Source: Dictyostelium discoideum (Eukaryota). From it: 64,000 bases of DNA. Positions 40,387 through 42,336 of this stretch are shown here, piece by piece. Below the pieces are notes generated by a model. The model was not told where the DNA came from. It searched no databases and saw only the letters and a program-made list of their open reading frames with translations. The stretch lies in NCBI GenBank assembly GCA_000004695.1, contig CM000152.2, forward strand, positions 4,480,001 through 4,544,000. Reading direction: 5' to 3'. The translations under genes and the position numbers were made by a program. Position 1 is the stretch's first letter; every line of letters begins with the position of its first letter.

Positions 40387-42336
40387 ATGCAAAGATTTAC
40401 AAAATTATATATTGAAAATAATGATGATGATAATAATAATAATAATGAAAATATAGAAAGATCATTAGAAGGAAAAGATGCAATTTTTAGTAATATTATA
40501 GCATGCATTACAATTGGAGATATTATGAAATCATTATTAGGTCCCTGTAGTAGGGATAAATTAATAATCAATAAATATAATGAGATTATAGTTAGTAATG
40601 ATGGATACACTGTTTTGAAATCAATTCAATTAGAACATCCTTGCTCAAAAATGATGGTAGAATTAAGTTTTTCGATGGATGATCAAAATGGTGATGGTAC
40701 TACATCAGTTGTAGTTTTGAGTTCATTTTTATTAAGAAAATCTTTAAAATTATTAAACGGTTCTTCAACTAATATTAGTAATAATAATAATAGTGGTGGT
40801 ATTGGTAGTGGTGGTGGATCAATTCATCCAATTAAAATTATAAATGGATTTGTTCGTGCATCTAAAATTGCAATTGAATCAATTATTAATCAATCAAAAT
40901 CATTTGATATTAATACTGACCAAGGTAAAAATTTAATGATGCAAACTTGTAAAACCACTTTAAATTCTAAATTAATATCACATACAAATCCAATTTTATC
41001 AAAGTATTTATTTAATTAAAATATTATTAAAATATTAAAAGTTTTATATTAATTATATATATTTTTTTTTAATAGATTAGCAATTGATTCAATATTAATG
41101 ATATCAAATTTAAAAGGTTCAATTTCAACAGAATCAATAAATATTATTTCAATTCAAGGCGAATCAGTTGAAAAGTCAACTATTTATCCATATTTTATAT
41201 TACCTCATTCATTAATTACACCATTTTATTCAAATAGTAATAATAATAATGGTGATTTTAAAATTTTATTTTTAAATTTATCAAATAATGGTAATAATAT
41301 TAATAATAATAATAATATTTTAAATATTGAAGATAATATTAATAAAGAAGAAAATAATATAAAATCAATTGTAATATCATTAAAAAAGAAAGGAATTTCA
41401 ATGATTGGAATTTTAGAAGATTTAAATATACCAAATTTAAATATTTCAAATTTATTATTATCTTATTTAACAAAAGCTAAAATATCAGTTTTAAAACCAT
41501 TTTCATTTGAAAAAATGAAATATTTATCCAATAGATTAAATATACCAATAATTTTTGATAAATCTGAAATCATTAAATCTGACAATTTCAAAACTTTTAA
41601 ATCAATTAAATATCAAACTATTAATAATGAAAATTTAATTCATTTTGAAAATCATATTATCACTACTACTAATAATCAAAATGATGATAGTTGTTGTTAT
41701 AATAATAATAATAATAATAATAATAATAATAATAATAATAATAATAATAATAATAATAATAATAATAATAATAATAATAATAATAATAATAATAATAATA
41801 ATATTTTACCAACTATTATTTTAAGAGGTACAACAATAATGGAATTAAAAGAAACTGAAAGAGCATTACATGATGCATTATGTGTATTAAGGAATTTAAT
41901 TCGAAATCCAATTGTTGTACCTGGTGGTAGTGCTTGTGAAATTGAAGCATCAAAAAAAATAAATGATTTCTTTAATAATTCAATCATTATAACTAATGGT
42001 AATAATAATAATGATAATACTACTATTATTAATAGAGATGAATTATTGGCAATGTTATCATTTGCAGAATCATTAGAGGAAATATCAGAAACACTTTGCC
42101 AAAATTCAGGTATTGATAATCATTTAGAGGTTGTATTAAAACTTAAACAAATTCATTTAGAGAATAAATTAAACAATTCTAAAAATATTGGAATTGATTT
42201 AAAAGTAAATTCTATTGGTGATATGTTTGAGTATGGTGTATTGGAAACACTTTCTAACAAATTGGCACAAATAACAATGGCAACAGAAATTGTAACAAGC
42301 ATTTTGAAGATTGATGAAATAGTTTATTGTAAATAA
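40387..42336 (+). CDS. Divergent group II chaperonin (CCT/TCP-1 family) paralog, about 625 aa. Two exons: 40387..41003 and 41076..42336.
   Basis: The equatorial-domain motifs are present: LGPCSRDKLII, the ATP-binding GDGTTSVVVL, and the C-terminal VVPGGSACEIEASKKI...VLETLSNKLAQITMATEIVTSILKIDEIV. Long poly-N inserts break up the apical region. The junction is GTATTT at 41004 to AG at 41074-41075, phase 2. It is far more divergent than a canonical CCT1-8 subunit would be expected to be. Confidence 0.6.

Follow-up and report, generated by a model that had tools for sequence, protein, structure and literature searches.

We analyzed a 64,000-nucleotide stretch of the Dictyostelium discoideum genome (contig CM000152.2 of assembly GCA_000004695.1, positions 4,480,001 to 4,544,000 of the forward strand; hereafter the window), which carries at its positions 40387-42336 a gene for a CCT-like protein. 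Judged from its sequence, this protein is a group II chaperonin that lies outside the eight canonical CCT families. We put at roughly 0.72 the probability that it is a functional ninth group II chaperonin paralog, a member of a small, fast-evolving family affiliated with CCT-delta, which would be driven by ATP and altered in its client specificity. In the usual picture, TRiC/CCT is an invariant machine built from eight paralogs that predates the last eukaryotic common ancestor, and the known extra CCT-like proteins, BBS6, BBS10 and BBS12, are tied to cilia and are mostly animal. An additional family that is ATPase-competent and under purifying selection would mean that early eukaryotes had more chaperonins than these eight, or a more plastic set of them, and D. 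discoideum would offer a tractable system both for the use of divergent subunits and for the question of whether a "BBS12-like" placement is a long-branch artifact. If the protein were only a lineage-restricted accessory chaperone, its recognition would still correct existing annotation, in which "Coatamer protein" labels and fused gene models occur.

Chaperonin identity and the eight canonical subunits

The window protein matches the Cpn60_TCP1 profile (PF00118) at E=1.9e-89, with 301 bits against a cut-off of 34.3, as expected of a group II chaperonin. Against the eight subunit-specific NCBIfam equivalog models (TIGR02340-02347), whose cut-offs range from 456 to 800 bits, it scores 234 bits for epsilon (cut-off 710), 214 for delta (TIGR02342; 695), 203 for alpha (800), 200 for beta (522), 197 for eta (669), 174 for theta (456), 167 for gamma (553) and 124 for zeta (587). 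Four dictyostelid orthologs likewise stay below all eight cut-offs, with scores of up to 285 bits, whereas control sequences pass (delta P0025 with 887 bits, epsilon P0030 with 957 bits). The cut-offs of the thermosome models are not reached either: 245 bits against 450 for Thermosome_alpha, 218 against 400 for thermosome_beta and 225 against 671 for thermosome_arch. Sequence matches in the PDB, to the delta, epsilon, beta, alpha and eta subunits of CCT and to archaeal thermosomes, are uniform at 1e-38 to 1e-48, and since a real cct gene would match its own ortholog far better, the fact that no subunit stands out argues against membership in cct1-8.

For D. discoideum, every canonical CCT family is reported to be easily recognized (Ewerling et al., 2023, PMC10074162). 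Among the sequences retrieved here, a canonical delta (P0451, 848 bits) bears a name in the same EukProt format as the ortholog P0003 and is probably from the same dataset. Because a canonical delta coexists with it, the gene is best regarded as an extra paralog rather than a fast-evolving replacement. A preliminary description of the gene, drawn up from the letters of the window alone, had proposed just such a ninth, fast-evolving paralog outside the eight subunits, and the proposal is upheld by the equivalog scores, by a clade of its own in neighbor-joining (NJ) trees and by purifying selection (see below). The opposite possibility, that we are dealing simply with one of the canonical cct1-8 genes, was rejected because all eight equivalog models fail by a wide margin while the controls pass.

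The nucleotide-binding signatures on which that description was founded (GDGTTS, VVPGGSACEIE and ILKIDEIV) are all present, and the ATPase set of the window protein is complete, with LGP..D in the stem loop, GDGTT as P-loop, a sensor Lys within TTLNSK, the Asp of HDAL, the GG(G/S) and the Glu. The roles of these residues in ATP binding and hydrolysis are established group II chaperonin biochemistry. Across the 16 members of the family defined below, G102-D103-G104-T105-T106, K195, D472, G489-G490 and E494 are invariant; D472 is the catalytic Asp and corresponds to D386 in the chaperonin of Methanococcus maripaludis. D57, the counterpart of the Asp in canonical LGPKGMDKM, is found in 13 of the 16 members, and S55 is a signature residue specific to the family. 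At the third Gly of the canonical GGG, the window protein and its D. purpureum ortholog have Ser.

Structure prediction with AlphaFold2 (AF2) gave a model with a predicted local distance difference test score (pLDDT) of 74.3 and a predicted template-modeling score (pTM) of 0.74, in which the fold outside the inserts is that of a complete equatorial-intermediate-apical chaperonin. The apical domain, whose retention had been in question, is thus part of the predicted three-domain fold, and low confidence is confined to the N-terminus and to inserts at residues 127-143, 276-286, 402-446 and 515-521. With Foldseek, the model aligns over its full length with closed-state TRiC and thermosome chains (E ~1e-31, target-normalized TM 0.84-0.87), and the CCT-delta chains 4v94_D and 7nvl_D are among the very best matches (TM 0.84-0.86; chain identity taken from the PDB sequence search). 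The helix that follows the lid (residues 290-310) is present and well predicted, and the Asn-rich lid tip at residues 276-286 is about five residues shorter than the canonical one, with pLDDT <50. Two elements of ring contact, the stem loop and the C-terminal ILKIDEI strand, are conserved in the alignment.

Family membership and selection

One ortholog was found in each of eight dictyostelid species, at 42-85% identity to the window protein: D. firmibasis (85%), D. purpureum (61%), a dictyostelid from EukProt (51%), Polysphondylium violaceum (50%), Heterostelium album (46%), Tieghemostelium lacteum (43%), Acytostelium subglobosum (43%) and Cavenderia fasciculata (42%). Against D. firmibasis, the ratio of nonsynonymous to synonymous substitution rates (dN/dS, Nei-Gojobori) is 0.166 overall; each of the two equatorial lobes has a value of 0.09, the N-terminal segment of the intermediate domain has 0, and the apical domain reaches 0.32. 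On these estimates the equatorial domains are under strong purifying selection, and the apical domain, which bears Asn-rich loops that differ from species to species, evolves about three times faster. Identity to canonical delta follows the same division, at 28% overall, 36-41% for the equatorial lobes but 16% for the apical domain, in line with the earlier statement that the apical, substrate-binding region is the most strongly diverged; the apical domains of delta and epsilon are 24% identical, and those of delta sequences from across the eukaryote panel 62%.

Several public gene models fuse the chaperonin-like gene to its neighbors. In D. firmibasis (P0001) and C. fasciculata (P0008) it is joined to RasC, and in H. 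album (P0005) to a mitochondrial carrier and to ribosomal protein S28e. The RasC fusion in D. firmibasis is an annotation error, since the chaperonin has a separate ATG at position 9144 of that locus (L003, 8001-11288). In three genomes the chaperonin-like protein is named "Coatamer protein", and a search of the literature on this name in Dictyostelium found nothing that explains the label.

Beyond the dictyostelids, a family profile was searched exhaustively against 1.84 billion representative sequences, and the members were then placed by name look-up. They include proteins of Vermamoeba vermiformis, Naegleria fowleri, N. gruberi, Willaertia magna, Acrasis kona and the malawimonad Gefionella okellyi, together with unidentified sequences from metagenomes, Logan and transcriptomes. 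These additional family clusters score 376-456 bits against the profile. Except for P0130 (319 bits) and P0126 (293 bits), whose matches to delta stay under its cut-off of 695, none of them hits a subunit model at E<=1e-90. Dictyostelid and other members share the motifs LGPKSRDKL (against canonical LGPKGMDKM), TTLNSKLxSH, EEExxIKSIVVxLKKxG and KAKISVLKP. Membership was decided by the score of a locally built family hidden Markov model (HMM) minus that of a delta HMM, calculated for 499 sequences, and here the members stand at 95 bits or more and every other chaperonin at 28 bits or less; two further, partial members (P0165 and P0244) were found by this difference.

All trees were distance-based NJ trees, from a panel without the alpha, gamma, zeta and theta subunits. 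In those of 81 sequences and 512 columns, the 16-member family is monophyletic in 97-100% of bootstraps under every treatment and forms a clade of its own outside the subunit clades of this panel. Within it, the dictyostelid and the heterolobosean members each form a coherent group, the pattern expected under vertical descent. Sequence comparison therefore portrays the gene not as a Dictyostelium oddity but as a member of a small family spread across Dictyostelia, Vermamoeba, Heterolobosea and a malawimonad. A literature search on CCT in Naegleria and on CCT in the last eukaryotic common ancestor returned nothing relevant.

Some database entries around the family are irregular. A second Willaertia magna cluster member, of 1127 residues (P0270), scores as a member with 588 bits and is a fusion, a mis-merged model or a duplicated copy. 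The 650-residue Naegleria fowleri member (P0268) is automatically named "CCT-eta" in UniRef despite belonging to this CCT-like family. In two proteins of about 1050 residues (P0121 and P0125), two complete thermosome-type chaperonin units are joined in tandem; each protein matches the thermosome models twice, and only this doubling of the score brought it high in the profile search.

Affinity, proposed role and competing explanations

Several comparisons point to CCT-delta as the nearest relative among the canonical subunits. In the family-profile search, most of the named matches from outside the family were CCT-delta (409-454 bits), and archaeal thermosomes came in at about 414 bits and below. 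In NJ bootstraps the family is sister to delta in 75% of replicates, or in 55% when only its slowest members are retained, and epsilon takes that place in 2.5-8%. In these trees (36-75% of bootstraps) the family branches outside the delta clade, as its sister, and it does not fall within the CCT4 orthologous group. Of 17 delta-signature residues, members keep 12-47%, Vermamoeba the most, against a background of 3%; dictyostelids retain 12-24% and the window protein 12%. For epsilon-signature residues the corresponding range is 0-20%, with a background of 4%. CCT-delta and the family also have in common the motifs DRxLKEEE..I(K)..V..LKK.G and F.KAKI.V.K, and with delta the window protein shares the group II fold, all nucleotide-binding and catalytic motifs and, as its best structural matches, the delta chains themselves. 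In rate the two differ, the CCT-like family evolving far faster, so that the dictyostelid orthologs alone are 54% identical where delta reaches 61% across the eukaryote panel. The window protein further differs from delta in carrying Asn-rich insertions, in scoring 214 bits against the 695-bit cut-off and in coexisting with a canonical delta. On this evidence CCT-delta appears to be the nearest canonical lineage, with support that is moderate and not decisive.

A number of observations limit the case for an affiliation with delta. Support for the sister relationship falls to 36% of bootstraps once the fastest columns are removed and only slow columns are kept, and for several members the NCBIfam scores of thermosome or epsilon equal or exceed that of delta. 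Long-branch effects are likely in NJ trees from a panel that is four subunits short. BBS proteins, once included in the tree, group with the family in 81% of bootstraps, which makes the deep placement provisional. Lastly, the retention of only 12% of delta-signature residues in the window protein argues against a drop-in replacement of delta in the TRiC ring.

In the role that we propose, the CCT-like protein would cycle ATP as a chaperonin subunit, with a client range that may differ from that of TRiC; it is unlikely to serve a housekeeping role in TRiC. BBS6, BBS10 and BBS12, the extra CCT-like proteins that are known, act with CCT subunits. Because of this precedent, and because the ring-contact elements are conserved here, the most likely mode of action would be association with canonical CCT subunits, by analogy either as an alternative at the delta position or as an accessory hetero-oligomer partner, although the few delta-signature residues that dictyostelids keep (12-24%) speak against a straightforward exchange at that position. 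Animals have extra CCT paralogs in CCT6B (zeta-2) and CCT8L1/2, which are lineage-restricted and substitute for or join canonical subunits, as the present family may also do; these are, however, recent duplicates of zeta and theta that remain close to their parents, whereas the CCT-like family is old, delta-affiliated and highly diverged.

A broader scenario can be put forward tentatively. The family could descend from a duplicate of the delta lineage that arose around when the last eukaryotic common ancestor lived, as an ancient ninth CCT paralog. It might then have been lost in most eukaryotes and kept in ATPase-competent form in amoeboid lineages of three supergroups, Amoebozoa, Discoba and malawimonads, where it could form a TRiC-like complex of an alternative kind or a chaperonin dedicated to clients specific to each lineage. 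As part of the same tentative scenario, linkage to rasC since the origin of the dictyostelids may hint at shared regulation or at a connection with Ras and cytoskeletal signaling.

It is unlikely that the family is instead a non-animal ortholog of BBS12, or of the BBS6/10/12 group as a whole, kept by a cilium-less amoeba for a non-ciliary role. The idea has a precedent in the literature, in which DDB_G0268902 is described as the single D. discoideum sequence that falls in no CCT family and is labeled "BBS12-like" (Ewerling et al., 2023, PMC10074162). Its close homologs were found only in Dictyostelia, archaeal thermosomes were its best non-dictyostelid BLAST hits, and it was placed tentatively as sister to animal BBS12 in a tree that the authors advise be treated with caution (PMC10074162). 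This description fits the window protein. By its dictyBase numbering, DDB_G0268902 would probably lie on another chromosome than the window; it may be the window gene or a second divergent paralog. A full-text search for the identifier found it in no other paper. The window gene is an uncharacterized subfamily member of a well-known kind of protein, possibly noted once in passing under a doubtful BBS12-like label.

Our own trees also bring the two groups together: a BBS clade of MKKS with BBS10 and BBS12 is sister to the family in 162 of 200 NJ bootstraps, and some members of the family occur in ciliated lineages (Naegleria and Gefionella). The human BBS10 and BBS12 sequences in that clade are unverified; the human MKKS sequence was checked at 97% identity to primate MKKS, and real MKKS sequences were used. 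Both groups have long branches, for which attraction in NJ trees is expected. No alignment column holds a residue exclusive to the family and the BBS proteins, while delta with BBS and epsilon with BBS have two such columns each, which is the level of noise. Within the 81-sequence panel, family members rank no better than 15th for BBS10, 26th for BBS12 and no better than 46th for MKKS, and canonical CCTs and thermosomes stand well above them for all these queries; the family HMM gives MKKS a score of only about 80 bits. A search with these MKKS, BBS10 and BBS12 sequences found only mammalian MKKS among the best 120 matches listed. The window protein has all its ATPase residues intact, whereas the P-loops of BBS6 and BBS12 are degenerate. 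To our knowledge, Dictyostelia, Vermamoeba and Acrasis have no cilia, and dictyostelids are without BBSome genes. Ewerling et al. (2023) advise caution on the same ground.

The grouping of the family with BBS proteins is therefore a probable case of long-branch attraction, although the relationship may be real. The preliminary description had likened the protein to MKKS and the BBS chaperonin-like proteins, and part of this likeness stands, as BBS6/MKKS, BBS10 and BBS12 too are divergent CCT-family proteins outside the eight and come out as sister in NJ trees. With catalytic residues invariant in the family, no exclusive shared residues, low reciprocal similarity and hosts that include organisms without cilia or BBSome, the likeness reduces to a plausible functional analogy, that of an accessory protein working with CCT on special clients.

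Returning to a ninth paralog that associates with CCT, we consider it improbable that the protein forms a homo-oligomeric, thermosome-like ring of its own, independent of TRiC. Such a ring would agree with the full ATPase machinery and with the stem loop and C-terminal ILKIDEI strand kept for intra-ring contacts, and also with the poor fit to a delta slot that the few delta-signature residues of dictyostelids (12-24%) imply. Against it stands the general behavior of the extra paralogs BBS6/10/12, which act with CCT subunits, and we know of no eukaryotic CCT-like paralog that forms a physiological homo-oligomeric chaperonin.

Horizontal acquisition, either of a thermosome from an archaeon or by passage between soil amoebae, is very unlikely. 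Thermosome_alpha is the top NCBIfam match of the window protein (245 bits) and of several orthologs, the published BLAST result for DDB_G0268902 agrees in giving thermosomes as best hits (PMC10074162), and the family is patchy in its taxa and confined to amoeboid protists of soil and freshwater. The thermosome score is, however, far under its cut-off (245 against 450) and only marginally above those of epsilon and delta. Archaeal thermosomes have the highest generic HMM similarity to the window protein, with the same fold and the same ATPase motifs, but the window protein lies below their equivalog cut-offs, is encoded by a gene with a spliceosomal intron and belongs to a family that falls within the eukaryotic delta/epsilon group in 175 of 200 NJ bootstraps, a figure that drops to 67-109 of 200 with slow columns only or slow members only. 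Delta-signature residues are enriched about eight-fold over background, and the topology of the family, in which Dictyostelia and Heterolobosea are each coherent, further speaks against transfer. A eukaryote-to-eukaryote transfer among amoebae may nonetheless have taken place.

That a canonical cct gene has left here a degenerating duplicate or pseudogene, with a frame open by chance, might be suggested by the very high Asn content and microsatellite insertions, by the absence of the exact protein sequence from a collection of 15 billion proteins and by the fused or mislabeled models in several genomes, but this is hardly credible and is effectively refuted by the dN/dS of 0.17 against D. firmibasis (0.09 in the equatorial lobes), with intact orthologs in eight dictyostelid species spanning the group, invariant catalytic residues and a conserved start, intron and stop also against it, the failed exact match being most likely due to the absence of the source genome's proteins from the collection (ten other open reading frames of the window are also without one, their queries possibly carrying a trailing stop or inexact starts).

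Gene structure, asparagine-rich insertions and genomic neighborhood

The gene occupies exactly the interval read in the preliminary description, with its ATG at 40387 and a TAA ending at 42336, and its spliced coding sequence of 1878 nucleotides gives 625 residues (Table 1). The N-terminal equatorial lobe comes from exon 1, as does part of the intermediate domain; exon 2 supplies the remainder of that domain together with the apical domain and the C-terminal equatorial lobe. Removal of the single intron yields an unbroken alignment to the orthologs and to CCT. At the genomic locus of D. firmibasis (L003), the ortholog has its own ATG and begins MPRFTKLYIEN (MQRFTKLYIEN in the window protein), and both the position of the intron, after ...NPILSK, and the YCK stop are identical. 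A 26-nucleotide segment at 42307-42332 (AAGATTGATGAAATAGTTTATTGTAA), which encodes KIDEIVYC at the end of the coding sequence and includes part of the stop, recurs exactly at 42356-42381; this copy of AAGATTGATGAAATAGTTTATTGTAA lies 49 bp downstream, in the 3' flank of the gene, and D. firmibasis has no such duplicate.

Table 1. Features of the CCT-like gene and its neighbor, in window coordinates except for the last row, which gives coordinates of the named loci.
Feature	Position	Strand	Basis or remark
RasC-type small GTPase gene, three exons	39070..40084	+	directly upstream neighbor
Exon 1 of CCT-like gene, residues 1-205 plus 2 nt of codon 206	40387..41003	+	open reading frame listing, splice reconstruction
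SRDK (S55-K58), 3' part of LGPCSRDKL stem-loop/nucleotide motif	40552..40563	+	alignment
GDGTTS phosphate-binding loop, residues 102-107	40690..40707	+	read from sequence
N/G/S-rich insertion, residues 127-143, equatorial domain	40765..40815	+	alignment, low pLDDT
Single intron, GTATTT...TAATAG, 72 nt, 4% GC	41004..41075	+	GT..AG; removal restores frame
Exon 2, residues 206-625 plus TAA stop	41076..42336	+	open reading frame listing, splice reconstruction
N-rich segment, residues 276-286, tip of apical lid (helical protrusion) region	41284..41316	+	alignment, pLDDT
Run of 39 Asn codons, residues 409-447	41683..41799	+	in frame; tandem-repeat detection (TRF)
D472 codon in ALHDAL	41872..41874	+	invariant in 16/16 family members and delta sequences
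VVPGGSACEIE nucleotide-binding motif, residues 486-496	41914..41946	+	sequence, alignment
N-rich insertion, residues 515-521, C-terminal equatorial lobe	42001..42021	+	alignment, pLDDT
ILKIDEIV C-terminal motif, residues 615-622	42301..42324	+	conserved C-terminal strand of group II chaperonins
Ras/chaperonin pair in relatives	L001 4721-8098; L002 4828-7878; L004 3657-7028; L005 533-3568	same strand	

Asparagine makes up 115 of the 625 residues, and five N-rich segments lie in frame, at residues ~12-20, 127-143, 276-286, 402-447 and 515-521. The longest run, of 39 Asn, is for the most part a perfect (AAT)35 microsatellite (41699-41803, TRF) and is located in the loop of a beta-hairpin directly ahead of LPTIILRG, a conserved strand of the intermediate domain; pLDDT is <50 over residues 402-446. 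At the site of residues 127-143, dictyostelids have about 10-20 residues more than canonical CCT in the alignment, and the segment at 276-286 is followed by the conserved EExxIKSIVxxLKKxG helix. The long Asn runs that were said to interrupt the diverged, chiefly apical part of the protein thus exist, although the longest is not apical and only the segment at 276-286 lies in the apical lid region.

The Asn runs are, as read from the sequence, coding insertions typical of the D. discoideum genome rather than missed introns. A scan found no AG dinucleotide between 41690 and 41824, so that excision of the longest run as an intron would delete the conserved ILPTIILR codons, and D. firmibasis has ordinary coding sequence, with no Asn tract, at the same site. 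The possibility, entertained in the preliminary description, that the poly-N regions are introns that had been overlooked was rejected on these grounds.

The gene directly upstream on the same strand encodes a RasC-type small GTPase, which from its sequence we take to be rasC (DDB_G0281385), and its stop lies 302 bp before the chaperonin ATG. P. violaceum, T. lacteum, A. subglobosum and D. purpureum likewise have a Ras gene, coding for 189-190 residues, as the direct upstream neighbor on the same strand, and in D. firmibasis and C. fasciculata the two genes are fused in one gene model. Counting the window, the tandem pair is thus present in seven genomes across the dictyostelid groups sampled, with a gap of ~0.3-0.55 kb; it is absent at the Naegleria gruberi locus (L006). 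This microsynteny may reflect shared regulation. Most of the second intron of the RasC-type gene is filled by 36 copies of the pentanucleotide repeat ATCAA (39494-39673).

Downstream of the chaperonin-like gene, a tRNA-Leu(AAG) gene (43794-43875, + strand) is flanked on one side by a 246-residue open reading frame (42960-43700, - strand) that has no Pfam match and is possibly a retroelement remnant, and on the other by an 1147-residue open reading frame (45941-49384, + strand) with endonuclease and reverse-transcriptase domains. The block resembles the tRNA-targeted non-LTR (long terminal repeat) retrotransposons of Dictyostelium, and it looks inserted, since the gap between the chaperonin and glycogen phosphorylase genes is ~2 kb in D. 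firmibasis and ~18.5 kb here. The glycogen phosphorylase gene itself is at 60912-63164 (- strand).

A full-text search on the DDB_G identifiers of neighboring genes identified only srfA and dstA; a gene for a 418-residue MADS-box (SRF-type) protein at 14019-15275 (+ strand) matches srfA (DDB_G0281387). Elsewhere in the window, the - strand carries genes for an AAA+ bromodomain ATPase (305-4210), a class II aminoacyl-tRNA synthetase of the Asp/Lys/Asn type (18697-20265) and an SNF2-family helicase (22255-27222).

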